Shown here one piece after another: positions 30,586 to 63,372 of a stretch of DNA of 64,000 bases. The notes under the pieces were generated by a model. The model did no database searches, was not told the origin of the DNA, and saw only the letters and a list, made by a program, of their open reading frames with translations. The position numbers and the translations under genes were made by a program. The DNA is taken from positions 70,596-134,595 of the IMG/VR virus record IMGVR_UViG_3300024313_000004. The stretch is one strand, 5' to 3'. This stretch comes from a virus. Every line of letters begins with the position of its first letter. Positions within the stretch are counted from its first letter, which is position 1.

Positions 30586-30963
30586 ATGCTTAATTTAATG
30601 TATTTAAATAATAGAGAACTTTATATAGAATTAGTGGTTAGTAAGGCACAAGGTAGACTTACAAGACCTGCACAAAAAATGTTAGAACTACTTGCAAAAA
30701 AGACAATCAAAAAAATGAGATACTGGTCTAATGATGATAAAATGGATTGTTATCAAAGTGGACTACTTTATGTTTTTCAAAACTGGTATAATTTTAACGA
30801 GGAAAAATCAGTAAATGCTTTCGCATATTTTACGGAAATATTTAAGCGAGGGATTGCGAAGGGTTATAATGACTTATATAAAAAGAAGGGTGATAATGAC
30901 CACCAAATAAGGTTAATATCTATAGAAGGGTCTAATGATGGAATGGGTTTACACTCTTTATGA
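30586..30963 (+). CDS. Minimal late-transcription sigma factor (T4 gp55-like)
   Basis: YLNNRELY and WYNFNEEKSVNAFAYFTEI match the gp55 YVNNKEF / NFDPEKSxNPFAYFTQI pattern. Confidence 0.8.
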   Translation: MLNLMYLNNRELYIELVVSKAQGRLTRPAQKMLELLAKKTIKKMRYWSNDDKMDCYQSGLLYVFQNWYNFNEEKSVNAFAYFTEIFKRGIAKGYNDLYKKKGDNDHQIRLISIEGSNDGMGLHSL

Positions 30964-31091
30964 TTAAACTATTTACATATGACATAATACTTCCACCAAG
31001 TATTGGAATGACTGCTATTAGTATAAATCCTTCAAAAAGTGCTTTGAGAAGATATAAGATTAAGAAGGTATTTCTACAATATTTATTGTAA
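30960..31091 (+). CDS. 43-aa ORF: prohead-protease-like peptide plus RxxKI helix
   Basis: Read by hand, ATGA overlap with sigma stop: MIKLFTYDIILPPSIGMTAISINPSKSALRRYKIKKVFLQYLL*; KLFTYDI is identical to the window protease. Confidence 0.6.
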   Translation: MIKLFTYDIILPPSIGMTAISINPSKSALRRYKIKKVFLQYLL

Positions 31092-31257
31092 TCTCTACTT
31101 TTATATTCTTACCTGTAAATTCTGCAAGTTTCTCATCAACAAAGTTTGATGGATTATTTAATCTTACTGAATTTTCACCATTTACGGTTTCTATTAAAAA
31201 ATTATCTTTTGCCTCAAATACTCTACCTTGATATTCTTTTATATTTATTGATTTCAT
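31060..31257 (-). CDS. Small hypothetical protein
   Basis: ORF track; TATATTTG (TAnnTTTG) at 31279-31286 upstream. Confidence 0.55.
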   Translation of the reverse strand: MKSINIKEYQGRVFEAKDNFLIETVNGENSVRLNNPSNFVDEKLAEFTGKNIKVEITINIVEIPS

Positions 31258-31325
31258 AATATATTATTTTTTGTCTTACAAATATAAGTATAATTTTACA
31301 TTATCACAAATTTATATATAATAAT

Positions 31326-31985
31326 ATGAGATGGATAAACGACTTTAGAGTATTCGAATCTAACGATTCTGATGATAAAACAAATAAGAGATCTGATAGG
31401 TTACTTACTGACGCACAACGGAACTATGAAGAGAATAAGAGTGAGTATCCTGGTGGTGATTCGCCTACAATGCTTTTCACAGATGTTGTTGGATCTTCTA
31501 GTATGTGGTCTGATGATGCAAAAACAATGAGTATTCAGTTGGATAAACATTTTAAAATAATGGATGATTTGGCAAGAAAAAGAGGAGGATTTGTTGTTAA
31601 GACAATTGGTGATGCATTTATGATTTATTTCAGTAAAAGTGAAAAATCTTTGGAGAATGCAATCGATTTTGCAGTTGATGTTATAAATACAGAAGAACTA
31701 CCACTTAGAATTGGTATATGTTCTGGTAAAATGACTGCAAAAAAATGTAGAATACAAAATGTAGAGCTTCTAGATTTCTTTGGTGATGTTGTAAATACTG
31801 CATCAAGAATGGAATCGAAAGTCGCAGAGAAGGGTTCAATTGCATTCACATCTGTTGATAATATTGATGAACAAATAAAGTCGATATCGAAAAAACATAA
31901 GGGTTTGATTAAAATAGAAGGATCTAGTATTCCGGATTTAAAAGGTGTGAAGGTTCCATTTGTATATAAATTAAGAGTTAAATAA
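31326..31985 (+). CDS. Class III adenylate/guanylate cyclase
   Basis: FTDVVGSS, VKTIGDAFM, RIGICSG, DFFGDVVNTASRMES; metal-binding Asp pair and NxxxR intact. Confidence 0.92.
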   Translation: MRWINDFRVFESNDSDDKTNKRSDRLLTDAQRNYEENKSEYPGGDSPTMLFTDVVGSSSMWSDDAKTMSIQLDKHFKIMDDLARKRGGFVVKTIGDAFMIYFSKSEKSLENAIDFAVDVINTEELPLRIGICSGKMTAKKCRIQNVELLDFFGDVVNTASRMESKVAEKGSIAFTSVDNIDEQIKSISKKHKGLIKIEGSSIPDLKGVKVPFVYKLRVK

Positions 31986-32038
31986 TATAAATAAAACTTT
32001 TAAGTATATTTTCATATAAATGATATAAAATTATTTTT

Positions 32039-32338: not shown

Positions 32339-32679
32339 TAGTTACATTTTATATTATAATATTTAGTTTTATATTTTCAGAAATATATCATTTTTTTAAT
32401 AAAAAAAGATTAGATATTATCTTCAAAAATAAAGATATCGATACAATCAGGAAGTCTGATGGTATTTTTTATATCTTAAAAATACTCTCTATAATTTGGC
32501 CAATTATTGGCCTTTTTTCAAGCTTTATTGATATATTTTTACTATTGATAGTATTTAATTTGATTAAATTCATATTCTATCATATATCAGAAACTACTTA
32601 TAATTATTATATAAGGATACTACCATTTATAAACATAACTTTATATCTAATAATACTATATTATAAGTTTATACACTAA
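32335..32679 (+). CDS. Small multi-pass membrane protein
   Basis: Three to four hydrophobic segments. Confidence 0.55.
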   Translation: MIVTFYIIIFSFIFSEIYHFFNKKRLDIIFKNKDIDTIRKSDGIFYILKILSIIWPIIGLFSSFIDIFLLLIVFNLIKFIFYHISETTYNYYIRILPFINITLYLIILYYKFIH

Positions 32680-33196
32680 AGTTTTTTAGATTATCTTCTG
32701 TTATTATGATGAATGAATAACCTTTTTTTTTACACCACTTTATCATAGTTTCCCATTTCTGTTTATTTTTATATGCCATCTTTAAATCATATTCAAAGCT
32801 CTTCAATTTCTTCATTCCTTTATCAGGGACTGTTAGTTTACCTTCTGTTAGTGCAATAACCATTTTATACTCCTTCATCGGTTTAACTTCAACCACCACT
32901 TCTTTCAGAACACCATCATCTCCTCTCATTCTATAGAAAAAATCTGGATAATATCTATGTGCTTTTATTCTAGAGTCACCATTTTCAAAGTGTGTCATTT
33001 GATATGGGATTTCTAGACATTCTGCACCCCATTGGAATATTTCATCTTTTAAATCTAACCAAATCATAATCTTTTGTTCCCAAGAACTTCTGTAATATAC
33101 ACCACCTTCTGAATTAAGTTTTAATACTTTATCTTTATTTTTTGGTATGAAATTACCTCCATGATACTTTTTATTACTAGGTTTCGAATTTATCAT
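32669..33196 (-). CDS. Head completion nuclease (T4 gp4-like, PD-(D/E)xK)
   Basis: YRSSWE, EIPY, HRYYPDFF, VEVKP, KWE, FIIITED. Confidence 0.9.
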   Translation of the reverse strand: MINSKPSNKKYHGGNFIPKNKDKVLKLNSEGGVYYRSSWEQKIMIWLDLKDEIFQWGAECLEIPYQMTHFENGDSRIKAHRYYPDFFYRMRGDDGVLKEVVVEVKPMKEYKMVIALTEGKLTVPDKGMKKLKSFEYDLKMAYKNKQKWETMIKWCKKKGYSFIIITEDNLKNFSV

Positions 33197-33242
33197 ATGA
33201 TTGATTTTTTTTTATTTATATATAAAAGAAAAAAGTTTACAT

Positions 33243-33944: not shown

Positions 33945-34023
33945 AAATAGTTATTAGTGTCACTTATTTTATTTTTTGGGAGTTAACTATTTTTATATAT
34001 AACTTAAAATTTTAATAATTTTA

Positions 34024-35754
34024 ATGGCATCATATAATTATAATAACGAAAGAGAAGGACAAGGAATGGGCTTTGTGAACTCTGCAGTAGAAAATAAAGG
34101 TCTTTTTAGTAGGATTTTAAGAACCTTATCAAACCATGGTATGAACTATGATGATATGATTATCAGAAATCAAGTTGGTATTGGTATAAACGAAGATCCT
34201 TATGCAGCTAAGGGTAACTCTATGTATGATTTCTTCTCACAAAGGGCAGTTGCATCTGTTTTAAATAGAAAGTCAATTCCCTATTTAGATAAGGCATATG
34301 GTGATAAGAGAAGAATACTTAGAGAGTATTCTATAAAAGATGAGATCCGTGATATGGTTAGTTCTGTTGCAGATGAATGTATCGTTTATAATGATGATAG
34401 AGATTTTTGTTCACCTAGACCAATTTCAAATGATTACTCACAAGAAGTTAGCGATAAATATCAAGAATATTTTGAAAAAATATATAATAAATATGGATTT
34501 TCCGATAGTATAACAGCATGGAATATGATGAAAGATTTCCTAATCGATGGTTATGTTGCAATAGAGATTGTTTATGATGACAAAAAAAAGAATATTGTTG
34601 CATTTAATAGACTTAGACCCGAAACACTTGTTCCTGCATATGAACCAAATGTTGGTCACTTATGGATACAATTCCCTGAGGATCCGCAATTAAGAAGAAT
34701 ATTTTTAGATTCGCAAATAGTTTTCGTTTCTTACTCTACACAAAATGATTATTCAGAGACATCTTATGTCGAGGGTCTTATTAAACCTTATAATCAATTA
34801 AAGATTCTTGAGCAAACTAAGATAATGTTTAACGTTATAAATGCAACAATTTATCAAAAATTTACTATTCCTATCAAAGGTCTTTCAAGACAAAGAGCAG
34901 AAGAACAAATAGGTCAACTTATACATGATTATTCAGAAGAAGTTGAGTGGGATGATACGTTAGGTACATTATCAATGAATGGTTCAAAACATTTACCTTA
35001 TAATAAACAAATATGGTTTCCTGAAGGTGATGCAGGTACTCCAAATATGGAACTTGTTTCTCCACAAGGACATGATTTAAATGAGGATGGTATGCTTAAA
35101 TGGTTCCACCAAGCACTTAAAAGGGCTTCTAAAATTCCTTTAACTAGATTCGAAGGAGAAAGTGGAGGTGGAAATTTAGTTAGTGATGCTGCAGAGATGA
35201 CTAGGGATGAAATTAAGTTTCATAATTTCATATCAAGGGTTAGAGCCAATTTTAAAGAACTTATTGTTAAACCTTTAAAATTACAAATGTTGATTGAGTT
35301 TCCTGAACTGAAAGAGGATGATATGATTCTTAATCAAATGGATATTATTTTCTATACTAATCAAATATTCGAAGAATGGAAAAAAATAAATAACTTAGCA
35401 AAAAGAGCAGAGGCTATAACTACACTTACTAGTGTAATGGATGGTGAAAAACCTTATTTCCACATTGAATGGATAATGGATAATGTTTTCAAACTTACTC
35501 CTGAGGAGAAAGCAGAGAATCAAAAATATTGGGCAAAAGATTCCGGTAGTGGTGATGGATCCGGGCCAGAAGGAGGTGCTCAAGGTGGAGACTTCGGTGG
35601 AGGTGCTCAAGGTGGAGACTTCGGTGGAGGTGCTCAAGGTGGAGACTTCGGTGGAGGTGCTCAAGGTGGAGACTTCGAAAGTGGACCAGAAGGTGGTGCA
35701 CAAGGTGGTTCGGAACCACCTGCAGATGAAGGTGGATCAGAATTTGAATTCTAA
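34024..35754 (+). CDS. Portal protein (T4 gp20-like)
   Basis: FLIDGY, KPYNQLKILE, ASKIPLTR, MTRDEIKFHNFISRVRANF; acidic Gly-rich tail. Confidence 0.93.
   Translation: MASYNYNNEREGQGMGFVNSAVENKGLFSRILRTLSNHGMNYDDMIIRNQVGIGINEDPYAAKGNSMYDFFSQRAVASVLNRKSIPYLDKAYGDKRRILREYSIKDEIRDMVSSVADECIVYNDDRDFCSPRPISNDYSQEVSDKYQEYFEKIYNKYGFSDSITAWNMMKDFLIDGYVAIEIVYDDKKKNIVAFNRLRPETLVPAYEPNVGHLWIQFPEDPQLRRIFLDSQIVFVSYSTQNDYSETSYVEGLIKPYNQLKILEQTKIMFNVINATIYQKFTIPIKGLSRQRAEEQIGQLIHDYSEEVEWDDTLGTLSMNGSKHLPYNKQIWFPEGDAGTPNMELVSPQGHDLNEDGMLKWFHQALKRASKIPLTRFEGESGGGNLVSDAAEMTRDEIKFHNFISRVRANFKELIVKPLKLQMLIEFPELKEDDMILNQMDIIFYTNQIFEEWKKINNLAKRAEAITTLTSVMDGEKPYFHIEWIMDNVFKLTPEEKAENQKYWAKDSGSGDGSGPEGGAQGGDFGGGAQGGDFGGGAQGGDFGGGAQGGDFESGPEGGAQGGSEPPADEGGSEFEF
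35572..35679 (+). repeat. Coding tandem repeat, 27 nt x4 (GGAQGGDF[G/E])
   Basis: GGAGGTGCTCAAGGTGGAGACTTCGGT units in portal C-terminus. Confidence 0.9.
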
Positions 35755-35760
35755 TATAAT

Positions 35761-35792
35761 AAAAAAGTCACTCAATTTGAGTGACTTTTTTT
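35761..35792. terminator. Bidirectional intrinsic terminator
   Basis: A6-GTCACTCA-ATT-TGAGTGAC-T7. Confidence 0.85.
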
Positions 35793-36237
35793 ATGCTATA
35801 TTTTTCTCATATGTATCTACATAGAAGTAAACTACTTTATTATCTATAATATGTGGTTTTAAATCGATTTCTGTCGAATTGTCTATAAGTTCCTCTATAA
35901 CTTTACCCATTGGTGTTTCTAAAGTTTTACATCTTAAAGTTAGTTTGTCTATTTTATTATCTTTTAGAATAAAAGACATTGATTTTATAGTAAGTACAGA
36001 CATTTGTATCGAAAGAATATTTTCAACATTTCCAAGTTGTACAAACATAGATATTGACTCTACATCAAATTGTATTCTTTTACCAGATTCTAAAACATTT
36101 GTTAGTTTAATATCTCTTTTGATTGATTTCCATTCTTTGTATCTACACATCAAATCCTCAAATTGATCCAAAGTATTGTTGTTTAACAATACTTCGTAAT
36201 CAAAATGTTTTATATCATCATCTAATTCAGATTTCAT
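35791..36237 (-). CDS. Protein with RxxKL helix and prohead-protease-like fragment
   Basis: IKRDIKLTNVLE; LRCKTLETPMGKVIEELIDN resembles the gp21 ILxTPMGKIxxxLIDxG segment. Confidence 0.5.
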   Translation of the reverse strand: MKSELDDDIKHFDYEVLLNNNTLDQFEDLMCRYKEWKSIKRDIKLTNVLESGKRIQFDVESISMFVQLGNVENILSIQMSVLTIKSMSFILKDNKIDKLTLRCKTLETPMGKVIEELIDNSTEIDLKPHIIDNKVVYFYVDTYEKNIA

Positions 36238-38120
36238 TAGAACTTTGTAAAATTTATCTGTTTTTTCTCCAAATCTACAGATTTGACAACAACTTTAATA
36301 GGATCACCTAATCTTATCTGTTCACCTATTGCACTATATGCAAAGTAATTATCCGAATCTGCCGTCCATTTTCCATTTAATGTTTCTAATCTTATCAATC
36401 CTTCACACTTATTTTCAGAAATCTCCACATATATACCTCTATCCATTACACCGGTAACGATACCATCAAATACTTGCCCAAGTCTTTCTTGAAGATACTC
36501 TGCTTGTTTATACTTTATAGAATCTCTTTGTGCTTTAGATGCAATCAGTTCTCTACTAGAACACCACTTTGCCTGTTCCTCTATTTTAACAGGATTTCTT
36601 TGTTTACCATTACTTAGTTTATCGAATAATATTCTATGTGTTATCAAATCTGGATATCTTCTTATAGGAGAAGTAAAATGAGAGTAGTGTGTAAACCCTA
36701 ATCCATAATGTCCTATATTCTGTATAGTATAAGTAGCCTTTGACATACATCTTGTTACCAGTGTTTCAATCATATTTTCTTCAGGTGTTCCTTTTATTTC
36801 TCTTAAAAGTTTATTAAGATTATTTTTCAAAACATCACCATCTTCATTCAATTCAAGTTTATAACCAAAGTTTGTACATATACTTTTTAAAGCGGATAAT
36901 TTATCATTATTCGGTTTATCATGTACCCTATAAACATTGTACCATTGATCTTTTGCTAAAAGTTTCGCAACTGCCTTATTCGCGAGTAACATATACTCTT
37001 CGATCAATTTATTTGCATCTTTTTGTTCTTTGAAATAAACACCTACTGGTTTTTTATCATCTTCGGCAAGTTTAAATTTAACTTCAATACCACCCATTTC
37101 GATAGAACCATTTTTAATTCTAGATTTTCTTATATTTTTCGCAATAGAGTCTAATTGTCTTATTTCCTTGTGGTAATCACCATCAAAACCTTCAATTATT
37201 TCCTGCGCATCTTCATATGCAAATCTTCTATCTGAGTGTATAACTGTTTTCCCATACCAGGTATCTTTAATCTTACCATCTTGTCCAAGTGTGAAAACAA
37301 CCGAGAATGCCAATCTATCTACATTTGGTTTTAATGAGCATATACCATTTGATAATCTTTCCGGTAACATAGGTACACATCTATCTACTAAGTAAACAGA
37401 AGTCGCTCTTTTAAATGCTTCTTTATCTAGTTCTGTTCCAAACTTAACATAGTGTGCAACATCAGCAATATGCACACCAACTTTTATATTATTAGGATCC
37501 TTCATATCGATAGATATGGCATCATCAAAATCTTTTGCATCAACCGGATCAATAGTTATAGTTGTAACCGATCTCATATCCCTTCTAGATTTGATTTCAC
37601 TTTCGGTTATAACTTCCGGAACAAGTTCCGACTCATTTAATACTTCTTGTGAGAAATCTACAGGTAATCCATATTCATACATTATCGCATTCATTTCAGT
37701 ATTATTCTCACCAACAAAACCTAATATCTTAGTAACCTTTCCTCTCGGTGACTTTTTACCAATTTCCCAATCTAAAAAGTCAACTAGTACCTTCTGACCA
37801 TTCTCAACTGTAGTATTTCCTTTTATATAGAAATCTACAGAGATTTTTGGATTATCAGGTATAACAAATGTTGTATCTTTTTTAACTTGTGCTGTTCCTA
37901 CAAATTGTGTTTTAAATCTCGAAGTTACTTCTAATACTTTTGCCTCTAACTTACGTTCTCCTTGGAATATCTCTATTCTAACTGTATCTAAGTGAAGTGC
38001 ATTTAAAGTTTTTTTCTTATGTACGAAAACTTCTTTACCATCGATTTTAACTCTTGCATTTCTCGATGCAGTGAACTCTATTTGTGATTCAAATATGTCA
38101 CCTTCTTTTATTTTATTCAT
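36237..38120 (-). CDS. rnr: Ribonuclease R
   Basis: DPVDAKDFDDAIS, VHIADV, ATSVYLVD, YSHFTSPIRRYPDL, C-terminal S1 domain. Confidence 0.95.
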   Translation of the reverse strand: MNKIKEGDIFESQIEFTASRNARVKIDGKEVFVHKKKTLNALHLDTVRIEIFQGERKLEAKVLEVTSRFKTQFVGTAQVKKDTTFVIPDNPKISVDFYIKGNTTVENGQKVLVDFLDWEIGKKSPRGKVTKILGFVGENNTEMNAIMYEYGLPVDFSQEVLNESELVPEVITESEIKSRRDMRSVTTITIDPVDAKDFDDAISIDMKDPNNIKVGVHIADVAHYVKFGTELDKEAFKRATSVYLVDRCVPMLPERLSNGICSLKPNVDRLAFSVVFTLGQDGKIKDTWYGKTVIHSDRRFAYEDAQEIIEGFDGDYHKEIRQLDSIAKNIRKSRIKNGSIEMGGIEVKFKLAEDDKKPVGVYFKEQKDANKLIEEYMLLANKAVAKLLAKDQWYNVYRVHDKPNNDKLSALKSICTNFGYKLELNEDGDVLKNNLNKLLREIKGTPEENMIETLVTRCMSKATYTIQNIGHYGLGFTHYSHFTSPIRRYPDLITHRILFDKLSNGKQRNPVKIEEQAKWCSSRELIASKAQRDSIKYKQAEYLQERLGQVFDGIVTGVMDRGIYVEISENKCEGLIRLETLNGKWTADSDNYFAYSAIGEQIRLGDPIKVVVKSVDLEKKQINFTKF

Positions 38121-38505
38121 CTTTTTTATTCATTTTTGATATATTATCAACACCATATTTATCTACTAGTGTTTTTTTCATTTTTGATAATACATTTTTA
38201 TTTTGTATTGGGTAGTCAACACCAAAGTTTTTTCTAAGAGTTTCCTTTCTTTTAACTTCAGAACATTTTCTACAGGAATAGTCTCCCCAATTATCATTAT
38301 CATATTTAAGGTAATTTTTGTAGATTACTTCTTTCTCAAGACCACAACCATCACATTTACACTTTATTTTATAGTGTGATCCATTTGGTAAAAGTCCCAC
38401 TGGTATATTAATTTTTTCACCTATCGAAATATCATATCCCAAGTCTTCATAATATTGATAGTTAGACTCATTTATTTTTATTTCAATTTCTCTTGTAAGT
38501 ATCAT
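38113..38505 (-). CDS. Zinc-ribbon/KYGVDN-repeat protein resembling a homing-endonuclease DNA-binding module with no nuclease domain
   Basis: CKCDGC, CRKC, KNFGVDY, KYGVDN. Confidence 0.5.
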   Translation of the reverse strand: MILTREIEIKINESNYQYYEDLGYDISIGEKINIPVGLLPNGSHYKIKCKCDGCGLEKEVIYKNYLKYDNDNWGDYSCRKCSEVKRKETLRKNFGVDYPIQNKNVLSKMKKTLVDKYGVDNISKMNKKDE

Positions 38506-38588
38506 ATTTCTTAATTGAGGATATAAAAAATCCACTATATATTTTATAAAAAAAAATGATTTAGTTTCAAAATAATAATAAGATATTC

Positions 38589-38608: not shown

Positions 38609-38678
38609 CTTTATATTTTGCTTGTTTTTGGTAGTTATATATACACTAATAATTATACAAAAAAAAACAAACTATTTC

Positions 38679-40775
38679 ATGAAACCAGTTCTAATTGTAG
38701 AAAATTCAACGAACTCTCTTATAAGAGAAAGTTCAAGTACTGGTAAGAAGGATTATATTTTAGGTGGTACATTTACTGAGTTCGGTGTTAAAAACCGTAA
38801 CGAAAGAATCTATACTGCTCCTAAATTCCTTCCTGCTTTAGAGGAGATGAATGAAAGAATGAACAATTTAGGAATTGTCTATGGTGAATTTGATCACCCG
38901 GATGTTTTCGATACTTCACTTTCAAGAGCTTCTCACGTAATTACAAAGGCTAATTATGTAAAAGAATCAAACTTAGTAGAAGGTGAAATCAGATTATTAA
39001 GCACTTATTGGGGAAAAGAGGCAAAATCGTTAGTTGACGATGGTTGTCCTATTTTCGTTTCATCAAGAGCTGCAGGTATTACTGAATCTGACGGAACCGT
39101 ATCATTAAAAAAACTATTCACTTATGACATTGTTGCTGATCCAGGATTTGCATCAGCTAAGATGAGTGTAAAGGTTCTTAATGAGTCACTTGGTTATGAC
39201 AACCCAAAATCCAACTTTAGGATATATGATTTATCCAACGAGTCAAAAACAGAAGAGTTATTTAACATGAACAACAACGAATTTGTTACTAAACAACAAT
39301 TAACTGATTACTCTCAGTATTTAGTTAAAGAGTTGGCGTCAACTAAGAAAGAAGTTAAGAACGCCATTACTAAAGGTAATATTGAACCTAAAAAACTTGA
39401 GCAATTACTTGAGTATTATGATGAATTGAACAACACTAATTCACAAGTAGCTAAATATTTAGACTACTTAGCTGAGAAAGTTCAAATTATGGTTAATGAG
39501 AATCAATCATTAAAAGAAACTACAGATAAACTAATCAAACATAATGATTATTTGGCTGAAAATCTAGAAAAGGCAGTAAATTATTCTGAATATGTTGCTG
39601 AAAATTTAGATAAGAACATTGCATATTCTGAATATGTTGCTGAAAATTTAGATAAGAACATTGCATATTCTGAATATGTTGCTGAAAATTTAGATAAGAA
39701 CATTTCTTATACAGAATATGTTGCTGAAAATTTAGATAAAAACATCGCTTACTCTGAATACATTGCTGAAAATTTAGATAAAAACATCGCTTACTCTGAA
39801 TACATCGCGGAAAACTTAGATAAAAACATCGCTTATGGTGAGTATATCGCTGAACATGTTGATAATTCTATCGCTTATTCAGAATATTTGGCAGAACATG
39901 TTGAAGGTAATATTGCTTACTCTGAATACATTGCTGAAAATTTAGATGATAATATTGCATATGGTGAGTATATCGCTGAAAATTTAGATAAATCTATTAA
40001 CTACCAAGGATTAATAGTTGAGAAGTTAAATGGTGGTAAATTAAACGAATCGGAAGGGGCATTCCCAACTTTAAATACTGTTGGTTTTGAGACTATCGTT
40101 GAAGAAAACGAAGTTGAAGAAAACGAAGTTGAAGAAAACGAAGTTGAAGAAAACGAAGAAAATGGTATTGCAGAAATTGCACCCGAAAATGTACATGCAT
40201 ACGAAGAAGAAAAAGAAGAAGAATGTGCTACTGATTATAAAGTTAACGGTAACTCTGATTCTGAATTATCTGAATCTATTGATAAATTAATTGAAGAAGC
40301 TAAAAAACGTAAAGTTTCTGAAACATCAGATTTGAATTTCTTGAAATTCTTATCTAAGTCACAAGTTGATAGCTATTATGCTTTAACAAATGAAGAACAA
40401 GATAGTGTTAAACTACACATAAACGAAAGTAGTTACTTCACACAAAAAGAAGTATTGTCTTTGATCTCTGAAGCATTATCAACTAAAAACGAAACTCTTG
40501 AAGAAAGAGTAATCAGATTAATGCCTGATAACACAAAGGCTATCTGGAACCAATTGAACGAATCGGCTAAAAAATCTATCATTTCACAAGCTAGATTATA
40601 CCCAGCTGAGGTACTTCAAACTGAAGGTCAAGTTGAACACTTTTGGACAACAAGAAACCTTAAAACAAATGAATCAGTATCCAAAAAACTTGTTTCACAT
40701 GAAGCTCTTATCCAAGAAGATAAGTTGTCTGATAATGATGTAACAGCAATTATGGAAAGATTCAAAAACATTTAA
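38679..40775 (+). CDS. Prohead protease fused to scaffold (T4 gp21 + gp22-like)
   Basis: KNRNERIY, YGEFDHP, FVSSRAAG, TYDIVADPGF; C-terminal coiled-coil repeats; start ATG 38679. Confidence 0.92.
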   Translation: MKPVLIVENSTNSLIRESSSTGKKDYILGGTFTEFGVKNRNERIYTAPKFLPALEEMNERMNNLGIVYGEFDHPDVFDTSLSRASHVITKANYVKESNLVEGEIRLLSTYWGKEAKSLVDDGCPIFVSSRAAGITESDGTVSLKKLFTYDIVADPGFASAKMSVKVLNESLGYDNPKSNFRIYDLSNESKTEELFNMNNNEFVTKQQLTDYSQYLVKELASTKKEVKNAITKGNIEPKKLEQLLEYYDELNNTNSQVAKYLDYLAEKVQIMVNENQSLKETTDKLIKHNDYLAENLEKAVNYSEYVAENLDKNIAYSEYVAENLDKNIAYSEYVAENLDKNISYTEYVAENLDKNIAYSEYIAENLDKNIAYSEYIAENLDKNIAYGEYIAEHVDNSIAYSEYLAEHVEGNIAYSEYIAENLDDNIAYGEYIAENLDKSINYQGLIVEKLNGGKLNESEGAFPTLNTVGFETIVEENEVEENEVEENEVEENEENGIAEIAPENVHAYEEEKEEECATDYKVNGNSDSELSESIDKLIEEAKKRKVSETSDLNFLKFLSKSQVDSYYALTNEEQDSVKLHINESSYFTQKEVLSLISEALSTKNETLEERVIRLMPDNTKAIWNQLNESAKKSIISQARLYPAEVLQTEGQVEHFWTTRNLKTNESVSKKLVSHEALIQEDKLSDNDVTAIMERFKNI
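39555..40016 (+). repeat. Coding tandem repeat, 42 nt x11 (AENLDKNIAYSEY[VI])
   Basis: Eleven 14-aa units counted in the translation. Confidence 0.9.
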
Positions 40776-40791: not shown

Positions 40792-40862
40792 TTATGTAAA
40801 AATAAGGTTTTTTAACGATATATATAGATTATTAAAAAAAGAAAAAAAAAAGAAAAAAAATT

Positions 40863-42566
40863 ATGTCACACATTAGAATAGACAACGCGAAAGCAACTAA
40901 GAAATGGGCTCCAGTTTTAGAAAACATGGGAGTAACAGGTGATAGAGTTGAATGGATGTCGGAGTACGCTGAATTTCACTCAATCAATGAAAATGCATAT
41001 GTAAACGCATCTAACGTTGCGGGTATGGGAGGTGTATTTGCACCACAACCAGCTGCTTATGCAGGTAACACAATCGGTGGTAACTATGCAGCAACAACTG
41101 CAGGTGGAACAATTGGTTCAGGAGACGTAGGTCAAAACTTATTACCAGTAGCTATGAAAATTGCTGCTCAAACAATCGGTTTGGATTTAGTAGCTGTTAA
41201 ACCAACTCCGGGTCCAAAAATCGATTTACTTTATATTGATTTCCAATATGATGATACTAGATTAGGTGATTCTGACGAAAGACCACAAGTTTTCAAATTA
41301 AATACTACTAACAATTCTGATCTTGTTGCTGCAATCCAAACTGGTGCTGGTTCAACAATTGTAAATACACAAGGTGGTTTAGCAAATGGAAGATTCTTCT
41401 ATTCAATCAACGCAACAGGTACTGCTTCTTTAGGTGCTACTGTATCAACTACTGAACCTGCAAGTAAAGAAGGTGTTGTTGAGTTTTTAGGATTCTCTAG
41501 AATCGATGGTTTCCCAATGTTCAGAGCATTTAGACAAACAAATACTGCACATACTGGTGTTAATCAATTCACAACTGCTTGGGGATTTGATGTAACAAGA
41601 AACACTTTCGCACCAACTGCATCAATGGTTTCTCAAATCGATCAAATCGCGGGAGTTACACCAACAGGAACAACAATTGAATTAATCTCTGCATTAGAAG
41701 ATCATATCCCAGGTTTCTCTACAAACTTTGGTGGTGTTCCTTCAGGTTCTGCACAAGGGTCTTACCCAATGTCAAGAGAAGAAGATGATAACAGTTATGC
41801 TGGTGTTATCGGACCAAAAATTTCTTCTAAAACTATCGCAGTTGGTACTATTGAAGTAACTTCAGCTTTAAGAAGAACAGAAATCGAAGATATCAAAGCT
41901 AACACAGGTATGGATATCGTTCAAAAAATGGAATCTATCCTTGTTAATGAGTTGTCTCAAACAATCTCTAAACAAATCGTTGCTAAAATCTTCGAAATGG
42001 GTTCTTTAAATAGAGCAAGTGCTCCTATCAAATCTGGTTCAGATACTATTTTTGATTTAAATACAAACTATGCTGCAACTGGAGTTGTAGGTGGTGAAAC
42101 TACTCACGCGGTACAAAGAAAATTGATCACGAAAATTGCTCACGCTTCTAACTATATCGCAACAGAAGGTCGTGTTGGTCCTGCTCAATACCTTATCACA
42201 AATGGAGGTTTAGCTGCGGCATTACAAGATATCGCTGGTTACACAATCAACCCTGTTAAATCTAAATTAAACGGACAAGGTCAATTATACCCTGTAGGTT
42301 CTATCGGAGATATCGCTATCTATGTTGATCCTTACATGAAATATAATGACAACAGAATCGTTTTAGGTAGAAAAAATAACCCAGATCAACCAGGTATTAT
42401 TTTCGTACCTTACTTGATGGCACAATCTATCTCAGTTATTTCTGAAGCGACTTTCGCACCAAGAATGTTACTAAGATCTAGATATGCGGTTGCTGAAGTT
42501 GGATGGTTCCCACAAAAACAATTTATGACTATTCAAGTTACTGATACTGAACAATTATTGAACTAA
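40863..42566 (+). CDS. Major capsid protein (T4 gp23-like)
   Basis: KKWAPVLE, DLVAVKPTPGP, IYVDPY, FVPY, PRMLLRSRYA; between scaffold and a strong terminator. Confidence 0.95.
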   Translation: MSHIRIDNAKATKKWAPVLENMGVTGDRVEWMSEYAEFHSINENAYVNASNVAGMGGVFAPQPAAYAGNTIGGNYAATTAGGTIGSGDVGQNLLPVAMKIAAQTIGLDLVAVKPTPGPKIDLLYIDFQYDDTRLGDSDERPQVFKLNTTNNSDLVAAIQTGAGSTIVNTQGGLANGRFFYSINATGTASLGATVSTTEPASKEGVVEFLGFSRIDGFPMFRAFRQTNTAHTGVNQFTTAWGFDVTRNTFAPTASMVSQIDQIAGVTPTGTTIELISALEDHIPGFSTNFGGVPSGSAQGSYPMSREEDDNSYAGVIGPKISSKTIAVGTIEVTSALRRTEIEDIKANTGMDIVQKMESILVNELSQTISKQIVAKIFEMGSLNRASAPIKSGSDTIFDLNTNYAATGVVGGETTHAVQRKLITKIAHASNYIATEGRVGPAQYLITNGGLAAALQDIAGYTINPVKSKLNGQGQLYPVGSIGDIAIYVDPYMKYNDNRIVLGRKNNPDQPGIIFVPYLMAQSISVISEATFAPRMLLRSRYAVAEVGWFPQKQFMTIQVTDTEQLLN

Positions 42567-43503: not shown

Positions 43504-44859
43504 ATGGCTGAACAAAAAATAGAGTTCTCAAAAGAACTTACTGAAGTACTAACTAAGTTGGAAAAACAAGGAAATTACGTTGCATTTGAACTTCTTTGGA
43601 TGACAGAACCTGATGCTGAATATTTCAATGGTTTAAAGATAACTAAGGTTGATGTATCTAAAGTTGATTGGTGTTTTAATATAACAACAGAAAATGGTGT
43701 TAAAAACGATATGAAGATTGGTAAATTCATCAGATATTACTTTAAAAATATTATAAATGATTATGAAATAACTAAGTTTTCCAAACTTTATAATAGTTTA
43801 AAAAGTGGTAAACCACATGAAGATGGTAATCCTATAAATGTTGAGAAATTTGTATATTCTCCTAAGGATCCAAGAAAAACATTTTTATCATTGGTAACCA
43901 AAACATACCCACATGGTAATGAAGATGAGGTTCTACAATTCTTACCTACTTTACAGAAAGATATTATAGGTAATTATTATACTATTATAGGTGGTAACAC
44001 AAACACAATGTTTACTTGTCACTTAGATACCGCAGATAGAACACAAATGACAACAACACTATTCTCTAAAAAAGAAGGTGATGATGAGATTATCGTAACT
44101 GATGGTAATACGGTTTTAGGTGCCGATGATAAATCAGGAACTACCGTTATGCTTTATATGATGGCACATAATGTACCTGGATTATACTATTTCTTTATTG
44201 GAGAAGAAAGAGGTGGAATTGGATCAAACGCACTTGCAGATGTTTATGAAAGTGTAGATTATTTAAAAAATGTTAAAAGATGTATTTCATTCGATAGAAG
44301 AAACTATAATTCTATTATAACAAACCAAATGGGTACAGAATGTTGTTCTCCTGAATTTGCAGATGCTTTATGTGATGCATATAATGCGAATGGTATGGAA
44401 ATGAAACCTGATAATGGTGGTATTTATACAGATTCTGCATCATTTATCGAAGATATACCTGAATGTACAAATGTTTCGGTTGGGTATTTTAACGAACATA
44501 CTGGAAAAGAGAAACAAAATATAACCTTCCTTATTAAACTATGTGAGGCATCAGTAAAGGTAAATTGGGATTCTCTACCTACCAAAAGATCATTAGATGA
44601 GATTATATCATATAAAAAACAATCATTAGAAGCAAAAAAGAAACATAAAGGTTTATTAGAAGAAGTTAAGAAAACAATTAATTTAGATAGACTTATTTCA
44701 GTTGATGGTGGTGTAACATATATGTGTCTTGATTTAGAAGGATCTGATATCGATACTATACTTGATTCTTTAAAATCTCTAAAAGAGATAATGAAAAAAC
44801 ATAATCTTAGAGAAGAAGTAGTCTTTGATGAGACATATTTAAAAATAGAACTTAAATAA
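43504..44859 (+). CDS. M28-family zinc peptidase
   Basis: CHLDT, GADDKSG, GEERG, SFDRR, YTDS, GYFNEH. Confidence 0.85.
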   Translation: MAEQKIEFSKELTEVLTKLEKQGNYVAFELLWMTEPDAEYFNGLKITKVDVSKVDWCFNITTENGVKNDMKIGKFIRYYFKNIINDYEITKFSKLYNSLKSGKPHEDGNPINVEKFVYSPKDPRKTFLSLVTKTYPHGNEDEVLQFLPTLQKDIIGNYYTIIGGNTNTMFTCHLDTADRTQMTTTLFSKKEGDDEIIVTDGNTVLGADDKSGTTVMLYMMAHNVPGLYYFFIGEERGGIGSNALADVYESVDYLKNVKRCISFDRRNYNSIITNQMGTECCSPEFADALCDAYNANGMEMKPDNGGIYTDSASFIEDIPECTNVSVGYFNEHTGKEKQNITFLIKLCEASVKVNWDSLPTKRSLDEIISYKKQSLEAKKKHKGLLEEVKKTINLDRLISVDGGVTYMCLDLEGSDIDTILDSLKSLKEIMKKHNLREEVVFDETYLKIELK

Positions 44860-44860
44860 A

Positions 44861-49080: not shown

Positions 49081-49784
49081 TGGATATAGTGGATATGATA
49101 AATTCCGGAATGGATCTTTTTGACTATTCCGGTTTTTTCAGAAAGAGTGATTATATTTCTGGTCTTGAAAGAGTTCAATTAAGTATGAATGTTCCGATTC
49201 AATCATGTGTTGATTATCAACAAGAATATATTCGACAACTAAAAGATGAATTTAAATCAACCATACTTTCTAAAACATTTAAAAATATACGAATTACTAA
49301 TGAATATTCAGTTTTAGATTTAAGAGGTAATAATCTAGAAGATGGTGATCAAGTTATCATAAACAGAGTATTAGATGAAATAAGAAGTAATAATTACAGA
49401 AATTTAGTTGTTTCTTCTAAAATTGGATCCATACTACAAGATTCCTCTTCATTTTTAATGACTTCTGAACCAATATCACAAGGTATTTATAAAATAGGTA
49501 GTATTTATGGATATCAAGATATATATGTTGATCCTTATCTTAGATATGATGATATGAGTATTTTATTATTTAATGATGTTTTTATAAACATAAGGGATAT
49601 TGAAAGTAGTTTAAAACTTGAAACAACTTTTAGTCCTAGGGTTCTTATAGATTTTAATTATTCTATTAATTGTGCTAGTTCTAAAGTTATCTATTTATTA
49701 GATGATAAATATCCTAATATTAGTCCAGATTTATTACAAAGAATACGTGAAGATAAAATAAATGAAATATTAGATGAAGACTGA
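49080..49784 (+). CDS. Truncated major-capsid paralog with C-terminal REDKINEIL helix
   Basis: ILQD..GSIYG..IYVDPYLRYDD versus MCP ALQD..GSIG..IYVDPYMKYND. Confidence 0.7.
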   Translation: MDIVDMINSGMDLFDYSGFFRKSDYISGLERVQLSMNVPIQSCVDYQQEYIRQLKDEFKSTILSKTFKNIRITNEYSVLDLRGNNLEDGDQVIINRVLDEIRSNNYRNLVVSSKIGSILQDSSSFLMTSEPISQGIYKIGSIYGYQDIYVDPYLRYDDMSILLFNDVFINIRDIESSLKLETTFSPRVLIDFNYSINCASSKVIYLLDDKYPNISPDLLQRIREDKINEILDED

Positions 49785-59197: not shown

Positions 59198-60523
59198 ATG
59201 GGAAAACTAATAAATCTTAACGAGAACGAAAGTCAAACTTTACTTGATGAAATATTCAAAAATGAAATTATTGTATTTGAGGATGTACAAGGGTCTAAAA
59301 TATGGGTAAACTGGAATGGTAATGAATTTATCATTAAGCCAAAATCCATAAACAATCAAGAAATAAACCTTGTTGATTTAGCAATGCAGAATTATTATAA
59401 TCCTGCAATAGATTATCTAAATTCCTTAGATATAAGAGTTAAATCACTTCTCAATAAAAAATGGTGGTTTTGTTTCGAATATTTTCCTGATAACCAACCT
59501 GCAAATATCGAATATGAAAGAATACCAACTAACAACTTGGTATTAAGCAGTATATATAAAAATGGTAAATATGATTTCATCATAGATGAGATAGATGAAT
59601 ATGCCAGATTATTTGGAGTGGATATGTTACCAATAATTTTTCAAGGTATCTTATCCGAAAGAATGATTGAGGCAGTTAAATATTTCTTAAACACAAGTGA
59701 GGAAGATTTGGAATATGTTTTTGGTGAGAAGAGTTTTGCATTTTTCTTTTATAAGATATTGAATCCATCTTCAGAAAATTCTTTTTTAATGTATGATGAC
59801 TTCCAATCTAATATAGAGAAGTTAATAATAAGATCAAATCATAATGATGTATCATTTGAATTATTAAACCCATTATACAAAAGAGTAAGTGACTCAAATA
59901 GTACAGATTTTGTTGAGATATATACACTTATATTGATAAACTTTTTAAATTTCTGTCAAAGTATAGACTTAAAAGATATGAAAGTAAAAGGTCATAGAAA
60001 AGATGATATCTATATCTATTTAATATGTCGTCTTTTCAACTTATATGTTGGTGATTTAAAACAAGATTTATTAGATTTTGATTTCGTAGTTCCTCAATTT
60101 TTTGACAAAGAAAAGTTTAAGATAAATACAGAACTTATAGAAAATAAATTAACAAAGGAATATATTTCAGATAGTCCAAAATTGGAATATATCTTTAAGG
60201 TTATATTAGGATCATTCAATAAAAAGAGGAAAAAACCAATCGGTGTTTTTACTGAAAATACAGTTAAACTTTTTAATTTATTTGTTGATGATATTAGTAA
60301 ATATATTGATAATCACTTAAATAAAATACATGAGTTAGAACTAAATAGATCAGGTTTATTGGATTTTGATGATTTCTTCTCTATTAAATATGATGTTGAT
60401 GGTGAGGGTAATACATACCCTGATGTTTATGATGAATTTACCAAAGGTGGTACAAATGATAAGAAGAAAAAGGGTAAGGGTAAAGGTCCCGTAATTCCAG
60501 AAAATCAAGAAGAACCCAAATAA
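59198..60523 (+). CDS. RNA-ligase-fold (Rnl2-like) protein with altered catalytic motifs
   Basis: FEDVQGSK in place of EKxDG, CFEYF, EKLIIR, FELLNP. Confidence 0.5.
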   Translation: MGKLINLNENESQTLLDEIFKNEIIVFEDVQGSKIWVNWNGNEFIIKPKSINNQEINLVDLAMQNYYNPAIDYLNSLDIRVKSLLNKKWWFCFEYFPDNQPANIEYERIPTNNLVLSSIYKNGKYDFIIDEIDEYARLFGVDMLPIIFQGILSERMIEAVKYFLNTSEEDLEYVFGEKSFAFFFYKILNPSSENSFLMYDDFQSNIEKLIIRSNHNDVSFELLNPLYKRVSDSNSTDFVEIYTLILINFLNFCQSIDLKDMKVKGHRKDDIYIYLICRLFNLYVGDLKQDLLDFDFVVPQFFDKEKFKINTELIENKLTKEYISDSPKLEYIFKVILGSFNKKRKKPIGVFTENTVKLFNLFVDDISKYIDNHLNKIHELELNRSGLLDFDDFFSIKYDVDGEGNTYPDVYDEFTKGGTNDKKKKGKGKGPVIPENQEEPK

Positions 60524-60735
60524 TGAAATCTATAGATTTAAAGATGACCTCTGTTGAAGTAAAAACAGAGACAAGGCCTTTGCGTTCCAAATGGACTCGT
60601 GAAATGGCTGCGGATTTACAAAGCATACATATGGACGATGCTTCTGAAATTGAGGCAACTCTTATGAAAGAGTGGCGGAATATGACCAGAACTTCTGTTC
60701 GAAGATTGAAGGTTCGTAAAATCTACAAATTTTGA
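60523..60735 (+). CDS. 70-aa gp23-like capsid fragment plus RRLKVRKI helix
   Basis: EVKTETRPLRSKWTREMAADLQSIH.DDASEIE resembles gp23 VxAKSRxLKAxYxxELAQDLxAVHGxDAxxEL. Confidence 0.65.
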   Translation: MKSIDLKMTSVEVKTETRPLRSKWTREMAADLQSIHMDDASEIEATLMKEWRNMTRTSVRRLKVRKIYKF

Positions 60736-62006
60736 AAACATATCCAACTAAAATGGATATAAATCTTATGAATGTAAAATCAGTTTTACCACTATCTAAA
60801 ATAAGTGGATATTCCAATATTAGAAAAAAGTTAGAAGATAAAAAAAATAGTCTTCAGTTCTTACCAGAATCACTGGAAGAGTTTTCAAAAACTAAAACTT
60901 TTGTCTATAAAAATAAAAAGTTAAAGGTTGCATATATAATTGATATAATACATAATCTAATATTAAAATACTATTTTAAAAAGGATAATAGATTCCATTT
61001 GATGTCGACGATTCTTAAAGAGAAGTATGGACACTTATATAACTATTATATGGACTATCTAATAGAAAATAATACCATTACAATGATTGTCAATTATAAG
61101 GCAGGCAGAAATTCAAAAGTTTATAAAATATCAGAAACTATATTAAAAGGTAAAATCAAAAGATATATAAATAGTGATAATATACTCTTAAAGAAATATA
61201 AGAATAAAGTATCACAAGTTGAAGAAGTTGGTATTAAGAATAATAGTCTAATTGATAATGATATAAAAGCGATGCTTGTCGATGATTTATTCTATACTAA
61301 AATAGAATTTGATAAGGCAATCTTCTACCTAGATAACTTACAACATAATGATACTGATATTTACAATAGAAATAGATATTCTGTTGAGTGTGTAAATGAT
61401 AAACATATATTTTATCATTTCGATGGTTATGGTAGAATGCACACAAACTTTACTATATTAAAATCTTTTATTAGAAAGAATTGTCTTTTATTAGATGGTG
61501 AAGAAACACATGAAATAGATATTGCAAATAGTCAACCACTATTTCTAACTAAAATAATATCAGATAGTGATTCTAAATGGGTAAATAAAGATGAGTTTGA
61601 ATTATTTAAAAATCTAACAATAAATGGTAATTACTACCAATATGTAATGAGTAATTTAAAAACCAATGATAAACCAATGGTCAAAGAAATGACGTATAAA
61701 GTTCTTTTTGGTAGAAATATACATAATAGTAAGGCGGATAAAATATTTAAAGAGTTATTTCCAACCATACATAATTTTATTAAATTATATAAGAAAGAGA
61801 AGGGTGATTATAAAGTACTTGCATATGAATTACAAAAAGCAGAATCTAATCTTATTTTTAATAAAATAATAAGAGAAGTTAAAAATACTTACCCAGAAAT
61901 TAAAATAATTACAGTACACGATAGTATAATTATACCAAGAAAAATGAAAGATAAAGTAGAAATAATTTTCAAAACAAAATTATTTGAAGAATTTCAACTT
62001 TTTTAA
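60732..62006 (+). CDS. Compact family-A-like polymerase (TV-Pol-like)
   Basis: YGRMHTN, motif A EIDIANSQP, motif B VKEMTYKVLFG, motif C ITVHDS. Confidence 0.65.
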   Translation: MKTYPTKMDINLMNVKSVLPLSKISGYSNIRKKLEDKKNSLQFLPESLEEFSKTKTFVYKNKKLKVAYIIDIIHNLILKYYFKKDNRFHLMSTILKEKYGHLYNYYMDYLIENNTITMIVNYKAGRNSKVYKISETILKGKIKRYINSDNILLKKYKNKVSQVEEVGIKNNSLIDNDIKAMLVDDLFYTKIEFDKAIFYLDNLQHNDTDIYNRNRYSVECVNDKHIFYHFDGYGRMHTNFTILKSFIRKNCLLLDGEETHEIDIANSQPLFLTKIISDSDSKWVNKDEFELFKNLTINGNYYQYVMSNLKTNDKPMVKEMTYKVLFGRNIHNSKADKIFKELFPTIHNFIKLYKKEKGDYKVLAYELQKAESNLIFNKIIREVKNTYPEIKIITVHDSIIIPRKMKDKVEIIFKTKLFEEFQLF

Positions 62007-62051
62007 GTTAATATATAACATATGTCGTAATTAAATATTTATATATAAACT

Positions 62052-62606
62052 ATGCTAGGATTAGAAAAACCAAACACATCATACATTCTTATCTCTTCTG
62101 ATAAACTAGATCAGATGACATCAGTTTTATATGCTAAAAATTATCAAATACTGACATTAAAGGGATATTTTGAGGGTAAGTTCGAAGATTCTATAATGGC
62201 GTTTAGTAAAGGTGATAACGAAGATTTAAGAAATGATACACTTTTCATATTAAATCAGTTTCATGAGAATAATGCAATTATAAAATATTTAGGAGAGTCT
62301 GATACAAAGAAGATTTTCAAAAATGGATCTGAAAATCCGATGGAAATACTAATGTATAATACCAATGAATCAAATAAATCATACTTGTACAATGGTATAT
62401 CATTTTCATTTATAGAAAAAACTAGATACTGGAAACCTAGAAATCAAGATGATCTTAAAATAGGAATGATTGTGGAATATCAGAACAATAATAAATGGTA
62501 CGAAAGAATCGTTAGGAATCCTAAAGAGGAATGGGATAAACTATATAAGTTACTTACTAAATATGATAAAGTAAGAATTGCCACAGAAAAACTTCAATAT
62601 ACATAA
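62052..62606 (+). CDS. Hypothetical protein
   Basis: ORF track; late motif upstream. Confidence 0.55.
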   Translation: MLGLEKPNTSYILISSDKLDQMTSVLYAKNYQILTLKGYFEGKFEDSIMAFSKGDNEDLRNDTLFILNQFHENNAIIKYLGESDTKKIFKNGSENPMEILMYNTNESNKSYLYNGISFSFIEKTRYWKPRNQDDLKIGMIVEYQNNNKWYERIVRNPKEEWDKLYKLLTKYDKVRIATEKLQYT

Positions 62607-62630
62607 AAAGCACTCAACGAGTGCTTTTTT
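62606..62630. terminator. Bidirectional intrinsic terminator
   Basis: AAAA-GCACTC-AAC-GAGTGC-TTTTTT. Confidence 0.8.
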
Positions 62631-63372
62631 ATTTTACAGTAAACCATACATATTGCCTTTCCCAATTTGAAGTTTCTTTTAGATAAAAAGTATTGTCAGT
62701 TAAACTTTTAACGCATATAATACCGCCTTGATCTATTCTTCCACCACGAGCAACTATAATCTTATTTGGACTAATTTTTTCTTCGAAAATTATAGAAAGA
62801 TTGGTGAGCATTCCATTTGATCCAATGTTATACTCGTTGAACCAATGCCAGTTGTTTCTACCCACAATCACTGCGGTTCCCGGACCTATTCTTCCGAAGG
62901 AAGCGATGAGGTTAGACGCATACATTATCTTCGTTACTATCCTTCTGAAGTTAAGTCCGTTGTTCTGCTCTAATGTTCTATTTGGATCATTCATCACAAC
63001 ATAATCAGTACTTAGATAATGTTTTTGTTTTGTATGTTTTTCTAAAAATGTTATTAAATTATTATATAAACTCTCATCATCTACAAACGGATTTGATTGA
63101 GCATTTATAGACATAATCTTTGGAGATATTGTCACCATCAATCCTTCTTCAGAAGTAGAAATTGTTTCTGATGTGTAGTCACCATTCTCTTCATCCACCT
63201 CATCCAACACTATATCTATAGAAAGGTTTCTTTTCTTTCTTTTCACCTCTCTTCTAGTCTCATCGTCTTCTACAATCATGTCCGTATACATCATTTGTAC
63301 TATTGGACACATACTCTTATTTTGTTCGGAGAAGTTACAGAGTGATTTTAACCTGTCGTTAAAAGTTATCAT
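62629..63372 (-). CDS. Condensed major-capsid paralog with KRNLSIDIVL helix
   Basis: RRIVTKIMYASNLIASFGRIGP versus MCP RKLITKIAHASNYIATEGRVGP (13/22 identical). Confidence 0.8.
   Translation of the reverse strand: MITFNDRLKSLCNFSEQNKSMCPIVQMMYTDMIVEDDETRREVKRKKRNLSIDIVLDEVDEENGDYTSETISTSEEGLMVTISPKIMSINAQSNPFVDDESLYNNLITFLEKHTKQKHYLSTDYVVMNDPNRTLEQNNGLNFRRIVTKIMYASNLIASFGRIGPGTAVIVGRNNWHWFNEYNIGSNGMLTNLSIIFEEKISPNKIIVARGGRIDQGGIICVKSLTDNTFYLKETSNWERQYVWFTVK

Follow-up and report, generated by a model that had tools for sequence, protein, structure and literature searches.

The record IMGVR_UViG_3300024313_000004 of the IMG/VR virus database is a single viral contig of 134,595 bp, the final 64 kb of which (positions 70,596 to 134,595; G+C content 29.6%) were analyzed and are referred to, as a whole, as the window. 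The window carries a T4-type morphogenesis block, recognized by matches to PHROG families, and, scattered along it, six small open reading frames (ORFs), P0001 to P0006. In a reading of the sequence alone, these ORFs had been described as dispersed capsid and protease fragments, joined to a shared amphipathic helix of the pattern R-x-x-K-[ILV]-x-x-[ILV]. All six are present where that reading had placed them, each with orthologues in related phages, and pieces of head proteins indeed recur as conserved small genes with an amphipathic helix, hereafter the tag. Apart from P0005, none of the six gives anything above chance-level matches in PHROGs or Pfam. In window coordinates, they are:

30960-31091, plus strand: P0001, 43 amino acids (aa), a copy of protease residues 154-184 followed by the basic helix LRRYKIKKVF (family hidden Markov model, HMM)
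35791-36237, minus strand: P0002, 148 aa, flanked by the portal gene and a gene for an RNase-like nuclease, on the strand opposite to the head genes (tag model, family HMM)
49080-49784, plus strand: P0003, 234 aa, an HK97 fold in residues 1-210 followed by a flexible C-terminal tag helix (tblastn, AlphaFold, Foldseek)
49774-50085, plus strand: P0004, 103 aa, overlapping the end of P0003, with the degenerate C-terminal tag RNLNLDKLL (family conservation)
60523-60735, plus strand: P0005, 70 aa, the gp23 E-loop strand and spine helix followed by the basic helix RRLKVRKIY (Pfam, hhalign)
62629-63372, minus strand: P0006, 247 aa, a complete compact HK97 fold (tblastn, AlphaFold, Foldseek)

The source is a megaphage with a T4-type head, a giant uncultured lake phage. 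The completeness of the contig is estimated at about 23% (CheckV), and the closest records are those of LR745206 and LR756502, uncultured huge phages of 634-642 kb, with 74% identity of the major capsid protein (MCP); the identity to the MCPs of the Lak megaphages is only about 29%. Relatives were collected by scanning metagenomes and viral contigs; lake metagenomes predominate among the related contigs, with some marine ones. Three genes of the window serve as reference points for the small ORFs, namely the parent of the P0001 fragment (the protease), the parent of the capsid-like copies (the MCP) and the gene that precedes P0001:

30586-30963, plus strand: gp55-like late sigma factor, 125 aa (PHROG late sigma factor, E = 3.8e-7)
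38622-40775, plus strand: prohead protease, with a gp21-like N-terminal domain and a long repeat/coiled-coil region (PHROG head maturation protease, E = 2.4e-30)
40863-42566, plus strand: gp23-like MCP, 567 aa (PHROG major head protein; tblastn against related phages)

Micro-ORFs that copy segments of head proteins

The start codon of P0001 overlaps the stop codon of the gp55-like gene (ATGA), and the two genes appear to be translationally coupled. An HMM built from 17 orthologues of P0001, all from other contigs, aligns with residues 154-184 of the window protease (E = 1.7e-10), the tail of P0001 lying outside the alignment. By this profile match, the body of P0001 copies the last strands of the prohead-protease domain, which bears out the earlier description of this ORF as a protease piece followed by a helix. 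The gp55-like sigma factor is extremely conserved (84-99% identity) among the best 80 of the 249 viral contigs that match it; in this set of 80, an orthologue of P0001 is found downstream of gp55 in 33 contigs, as 17 distinct sequences. The ratio of nonsynonymous to synonymous substitution rates (dN/dS), estimated with NG86 for P0001, P0003, P0004, P0005 and P0006, is 0.35 for P0001 compared with 0.009 for gp55.

P0005 matches the Pfam family Gp23 (E = 4.8e-7; 30 bits against a cut-off of 24.4 bits), and the profile of its own family aligns without gaps to residues 317-379 of the MCP (hhalign, E = 3.5e-5), so that here, too, the gp23 strand and helix with a basic tail that had been read from the letters are recovered by profile. 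Seven syntenic orthologues of 60-70 aa lie between the same two conserved genes, and the gene is lost in some relatives; a search for longer relatives of P0005 found none. Its dN/dS is 0.35. Judged by these alignments, P0001 and P0005 are true fragments of the protease and the MCP, respectively.

P0002 is a less clear-cut case. Its acidic tag is internal (residues 33-52; nucleotides 36082-36141), scores 11 bits with an HMM made from relatives only and reaches E = 1e-10 with model A5, of which P0002 is a member. Ten orthologues that share 32-81% identity conserve the motif W-x-x-[FY]-K-R-[DE]-I-x-L-x-x-[ILV]-L, and orthologues are found in 13 viral contigs and in LR745206. The best non-self match of the family HMM is to residues 96-146 of the protease, a stretch covering the segment flagged earlier, with a marginal E-value of 0.012, and BLASTP finds no match between P0002 and the protease. 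Thus, the helix reported in P0002 stands, whereas the protease segment around TPMGK is marginal; the C-terminal domain of P0002 is possibly related to protease residues 96-146 and would then be a third fragment case. Neither P0001, with residues 154-184, nor P0002, with at most residues 96-146, contains a complete prohead-protease domain with its catalytic residues.

The ORF P0009 (60732-62006, plus strand, 424 aa), next to P0005, is conserved in all relatives and has no family match; by eye, its strings DIANSQPLF and TVHDSIIIP resemble motifs A and C of a single-subunit polymerase. P0009 was also considered as a mobile element that split a capsid gene, and this was rejected: in every relative examined, synteny and conservation extend over P0009 and the genes next to it.

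Two compact HK97 paralogues

P0003 and P0006 had likewise been taken for capsid fragments. The resemblance to the capsid protein holds for both, but they are not fragments. P0003 matches residues 430-543 of the phage's own MCP (tblastn, E = 1.5e-6) and P0006 matches residues 419-518 (E = 4e-4), and the AlphaFold models of both (predicted local distance difference test, pLDDT, of 76 and 78, respectively) show a complete compact HK97 fold, comprising E-loop, spine helix, P domain and A domain. Residues 1-210 of the P0003 model superimpose on T4 gp24 (1yue) with Z = 12.3 and a root-mean-square deviation (rmsd) of 3.4 over 203 aligned residues, and residues 3-247 of the P0006 model superimpose on T4 gp23 (7vrt) with Z = 14.2 and an rmsd of 4.9 over 196 residues; every strong Foldseek match of the two models is a capsid protein or an encapsulin. 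BLASTP finds no match between P0003 and P0006, and hhalign aligns only their helices (E = 0.19). According to these models, P0003 and P0006 are whole-fold HK97 paralogues of gp23/gp24.

The tag helix of P0003, RIREDKINEIL, occupies residues 216-231 (nucleotides 49725-49772), and R223, K226, I227, I230 and L231 are invariant columns of the family alignment. At least 16 of 42 relatives have a P0003-like gene 3' of the same methyltransferase gene, and the 14 distinct proteins all end with R-D-x-K-I-[DN]-x-[IL]-L, with bodies that diverge down to 30-40% identity. This invariance suggests selection on the helix as an interaction module, as proposed previously. In phages in which the flanking methyltransferase is 94-97% identical, P0003 is only 40-63% identical, with the tag invariant; its dN/dS (0.17-0.56 on unsaturated pairs) is several times that of its neighbours. 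Such a pattern would fit an accessory protein engaged in conflict, or weak constraint, and is unlike that of a core shell subunit. Outside the window, at contig positions 8072-8404, a 110-aa ORF consists of a truncated P0003-like A-domain followed by the helix.

P0004, the neighbour of P0003, had been noted as carrying the helix alone. No likeness to head proteins was found for it in PHROGs or Pfam, in agreement with that description, but its helix, KRVKRNLNLDKLL, deviates from the pattern. The P0004 family is kept beside P0003-like genes, with the tails RELTLNKLI, RDFRINKVI, REYRISKAI and RGMRIDDIL, and has a dN/dS of 0.09-0.24 (close pairs).

P0006 has more than 100 homologues, each of 240-250 aa, with a median dN/dS of 0.15. 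Its conserved helix (RNLSIDIVLDE, residues 37-56; residues 37-58 correspond to nucleotides 63199-63264) is followed by a disordered acidic linker (residues 56-78), and R48, L50, I52, L56 and E58 are invariant in the family alignment. Because P0006 is conserved and is one of only two HK97 paralogues in a genome with no full-length gp24, it may be a gp24-like vertex protein and is the likeliest exception to the interpretation of these genes as mimics that is developed below. In the complete relative LR745206, a search with Pfam Gp23 revealed no second full-length gp23-like gene. P0003 and P0006 resemble T4 gp24 in that they bring the HK97-fold genes of a T4-type head module to three, and their best structural matches include T4 gp23 and gp24 (Z = 11.6-14.2). 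Unlike gp24 (about 430 aa), which is a full-length gp23 paralogue encoded beside gene 23, they have 234-247 aa, lack the insertion domain and lie away from the MCP gene, P0003 at 6.5 kb and P0006 at 20 kb; furthermore, P0003 is hypervariable and ends with the tag helix, and a vertex location of either protein is only putative.

A portable helix and its two probable spellings

The tag is not confined to copies of head proteins. The pattern R..K[ILV]..[ILV] occurs six times within the last 22 residues of the 170 ORFs, compared with 0.46 expected from shuffles, and a tag HMM trained on relatives only yields four proteome matches that reach 10 bits (P0002 and P0003, plus a pair of unrelated ORFs of the contig) compared with 0.017 expected from shuffled proteomes; controls with reversed sequences likewise remain far below the observed counts. 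In the complete genome LR745206, the acidic-tag model has 42 matches, and the 20 further matches that were inspected are in unrelated ORFs, almost all of 75-235 aa, with the tag at the extreme C-terminus in 18 of the 20 and the consensus [YW]-x-R-D-x-K-I-[DN]-x-[IV]-L. The basic-tail model has 16 matches in the same genome, all in frames of 35-135 aa. The helix is, therefore, a portable, clade-wide and mostly C-terminal tag found on dozens of small unrelated proteins in each genome. The acidic spelling, [YW]-x-R-D-x-K-I-[DN]-x-[IL]-L, is found on proteins of 75-250 aa, and the basic spelling, I-R-K-x-K-I-x-K-I-F, on micro-ORFs. With some 40 acidic and 16 basic matches in one genome, the suggestion that the helix is special to capsid and protease fragments has to be abandoned. 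The shared helix itself survives in part: the C-terminal enrichment is real, but KRNLSIDIVL of P0006, like the P0004 helix, departs from the pattern, and the acidic-tag model gives no significant match to the tails of P0001, P0004, P0005 and P0006.

These tails, which are not significant individually, together with the absence of P0005 from some relatives and the abundance of homing endonucleases and split genes in this genome, could be accommodated by another account, in which the ORFs are decaying leftovers of gene duplications or of homing-endonuclease traffic, with a helix that merely arises by chance as an amphipathic pattern in a proteome rich in K, I, L and D. This account is very improbable and largely refuted, given that intact orthologues persist over deep divergence with dN/dS of 0.15-0.56 on unsaturated pairs (0.09-0.8 overall and mostly 0.15-0.6 for the five ORFs measured), that the motif columns are invariant, and that both the shuffled and the reversed controls fall far short of the observed counts. 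The checks set out with the sequence-only reading thus came out in its favour with respect to decay, the shuffled proteome and structural or profile similarity, the latter being to HK97 folds for P0003 and P0006 and to the MCP and protease profiles for P0005 and P0001.

Database searches add little to the identity of the tag. Ten tag tails compared with Pfam at E-values up to 10 matched no family, including DUF6576 (PF20216); PHROGs and Pfam give nothing for the other tag carriers, and the ESM Atlas gives nothing for the carrier at contig positions 55204-55803. DUF6576 itself is a second portable C-terminal module of this phage, ending three otherwise unrelated ORFs with ILDKIxKxGxxSLTKEEKxFL (E = 3e-9 to 2e-5, Pfam):

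17652-18080 of the window, plus strand
3112-3726 of the contig, minus strand
56033-56659 of the contig, minus strand

The first helix of DUF6576, IDxILDKI, resembles the tag core I-D-x-I-L-D, and, together with the short C-terminal modules of the SHOCT type, DUF6576 is a near comparison to the tag. No paper mentioning DUF6576 was found in literature searches.

Further tagged copies in a complete relative

LR745206 provides more examples of head-protein pieces with basic tails. Pfam Gp23 finds one full MCP and three micro-ORF fragments in this genome, two of which are new. An ORF of 75 aa copies MCP residues 500-546 (E = 4e-6) and ends with LIRKRKIENIF, and an ORF of 67 aa contains a complete copy of the spine helix followed by a separate tail, RRKNSINKIF. 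Since the tail of the 67-aa ORF is separate from the spine helix, the basic tail is appended and not merely the end of that helix. The body of another basic-tailed protein matches the DNA polymerase near motif A (E = 6e-4), and yet another matches the C-terminus of the portal (E = 0.011), its only Pfam match being Portal_T4 (E = 0.048); the source proteins thus probably also include the portal and the DNA polymerase. Micro-ORFs of LR745206 were also considered as copies of polymerase motif B, of the terminase Walker A motif and of leaders of the capsid targeting sequence (CTS) type; these likenesses were noted by eye and received no support from tests.

What the tag may address

The first possibility is that the tag is a sliding-clamp-binding peptide, similar to the PCNA-interacting peptide (PIP), which would recruit the carriers to DNA-loaded clamps. 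The C-terminal tails of T4 gp55 and gp43 are interchangeable clamp-binding motifs (PMC2988020), ending with SLDFLYEAND and ASLDFLFG, respectively, in the T4 record. The gp55-like sigma factor of the window has 60 aa fewer than T4 gp55 and no C-terminal clamp-binding tail, and P0001, located directly 3' of this tailless gene, could supply it. The element K-I-D-x-I-L has an h-D-x-h-h pattern similar to that of T4 S-L-D-F-L-[FY] and is also C-terminal and flanked by acidic residues; the phage DNA polymerase ends with R-L-S-V-V-M-D-I-F-N-G-F (RLSVVMDIFNGF) and a neighbouring ORF (contig 40378-40617) with R-D-K-K-I-D-D-L-F-D-G-F-D-F (RDKKIDDLFDGFDF). The tag would further resemble the T4-type motif in being a small C-terminal peptide, both hydrophobic and acidic, on unrelated proteins that converge on one hub; unlike it, the tag has the upstream R-D-x-K and tens of carriers, and its clamp binding is putative. 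The polymerase tail itself lacks the R-D-x-K signature, and a genome with 40 or more clamp partners, capsid-fold proteins among them, would be without precedent.

A candidate clamp gene adjoins the split DNA polymerase gene outside the window (contig 44084-44872, minus strand; 262 aa, 232 homologues), which would suit this explanation, but its assignment is weak. It matches PF09116 with E = 0.06, its family profile matches PCNA with E = 0.015, the single sequence has no match in the PDB, and in the ESM Atlas PF09116 is found on 10% of one cluster, a weak lead. The predicted complex of the candidate with the P0003 tail (residues 190-234), which received very low interface confidence (score 0.10, mark 0.32), is evidence neither way. 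On balance, clamp binding appears unlikely.

Alternatively, the tag could be a capsid or scaffold address, a C-terminal equivalent of the T4 CTS or of the cargo-loading peptides of encapsulins, in which case the tagged proteins would be built into the head or packed in it. In HK97-type viruses, scaffolds and proteases usually bind the coat through C-terminal helices, several of the carriers resemble capsid proteins or proteases, and the sequence TATAAATA is located 41 nt upstream of the P0006 start. As a portable short helix on many unrelated proteins of a T4-type phage, the tag resembles the CTS of IPI-III and Alt; however, the CTS is an N-terminal leader that ends in a gp21 cleavage site and is cut off by gp21, whereas the tag is C-terminal or internal. 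More than 20 ORFs of the whole contig carry a separate N-terminal leader similar to the T4 CTS (MKYLKKFExF, MKHIRQFESF, MIKRYNNYIKE and the like), and none of them is a tag carrier. Those within the window include:

5166-5735
13905-14465
14469-17609
24929-25501
25558-25713
25747-26397
44861-45271
46999-47469

Since this CTS-like set of the phage's own excludes the tag carriers, a capsid address becomes less likely. Many carriers also lie among genes of the replication or early type and on the strand opposite to the head genes, and TATAAATA, considered as a late promoter, shows no enrichment in the AT-rich genome (31 and 37 occurrences compared with 28 and 34 expected), so that gene timing is not readable from it. 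Overall, this explanation appears quite unlikely. A degradation or adaptor signal is possible, too, with a ClpP gene present on the contig. This gene, of the ClpP protease family (E = 2.7e-65), lies outside the window at contig positions 31238-31912 on the minus strand; a 150-aa ORF with a tag-like tail is located directly downstream of it.

Proposed role as tag-addressed mimics

The interpretation that brings these observations together is a merger of three components, namely compact HK97 paralogues, segment-copying micro-ORFs of 43-70 aa and a portable tag, in which the carriers are tag-addressed mimics or modulators; the chances that it is right appear about even. As a docking peptide, the tag would direct every carrier to one putative common reader protein, and the head-derived bodies would imitate or modulate core phage proteins and would not serve as bulk building blocks. 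Such bodies could interfere with or regulate assembly, or could occupy proteins that recognize conserved surfaces. For the micro-ORFs, judging from the segments that they resemble, the most economical idea would be that they mimic the copied elements toward a partner. Eukaryotic microProteins of the ID and LITTLE ZIPPER type consist of one domain or segment of a larger protein and engage the partners of that protein, and the phage micro-ORFs would be comparable, by analogy only, in deriving from one segment of a larger protein; we know of no phage example of microProteins.

Several observations weigh against this interpretation. The tail of P0005 aligns without gaps to the end of the MCP spine helix, SKQIVAKIF, and so could be inherited and not added, whereas the helix of P0006 belongs to its HK97 fold and is missed by the tag models. 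In P0005 and, probably, in P0006, the helix falls on the native end of the gp23 spine helix, contrary to the earlier proposal that independent fragments acquired the tag. Model A5 misses the basic tails, and no significant profile match joins the acidic and basic forms, so that one tag with two spellings is suggested by the shared skeleton I-R-x-x-K-I-x-x-I-[LF]. The assignments of the portal and polymerase fragments come with weak E-values from small databases. The fast evolution of P0003 could reflect low constraint and not an arms race. Finally, the reader of the tag is putative, and the carriers are known from their sequences and predicted models.

A stronger form of the mimic interpretation holds that this megaphage clade keeps a tag-addressed library of microproteins and mini-folds, each a mimic of a conserved surface of the capsid protein, protease, portal or DNA polymerase. 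The mimics would either mislead host defences that recognize the core proteome of phages or poison assembly and replication in competing phages, and the helix would couple all of them to one hub or effector; this seems unlikely. The related proposal that tagged copies of head proteins serve as decoys for those host sensors that detect conserved phage proteins, such as the capsid and the portal, or as dominant-negative poisons of the assembly of co-infecting relatives, with the tag as an effector handle, is similarly rather doubtful. In the MCP and the protease, and probably in the portal and the polymerase, it is the most conserved parts that are copied, P0003 is hypervariable next to nearly identical flanking genes with its tag unchanged, and immunity that senses capsids exists: the bacterial protein CapRel detects capsid proteins directly (PMC9712102). 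Against a role as decoy or poison, dN/dS is below 1 everywhere it was measured, and the same tag is present on dozens of proteins unlike structural proteins.

Genomic surroundings

The remaining genes of the morphogenesis block are:

32669-33196, minus strand: gp4-like head closure protein
34024-35754: portal

Between the portal and protease genes, the head module is interrupted by genes on the opposite strand, namely a large nuclease gene and a gene resembling an HNH homing endonuclease (both within 36237-38535, minus strand) and P0002. The protease (38622-40775) is fused to about 12 tandem repeats of 14 residues (YSEYVAENLDKNIA), an acidic EENEV repeat and a C-terminal domain; the repeat region fused to the protease is probably a built-in scaffold. 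An ORF of 944 aa at 52185-55019 (minus strand), located in a stretch of 38% G+C, contains internal repeats that match MCP residues 203-243 at low complexity; this ORF does not represent another capsid copy.

Significance

Extra HK97-fold genes and portable address peptides are already known, each separately, in T4-type phages. New here are the recurrent link of a tag to copies of core proteins and the two mini HK97 paralogues. In literature searches, conserved micro-genes of this kind, which each copy one conserved segment of a capsid, protease, portal or polymerase protein and bear a clade-wide C-terminal tag, were not found described, and nothing relevant on megaphage tags or capsid paralogues came up. 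The interpretation of the copies as mimics can be tested directly, since their parent proteins are known. If the reader of the tag is found, dozens of small proteins in each megaphage genome that defy annotation would become accessible together, and, if the copies indeed act as mimics, they would represent a new strategy in phage-host or phage-phage conflict.

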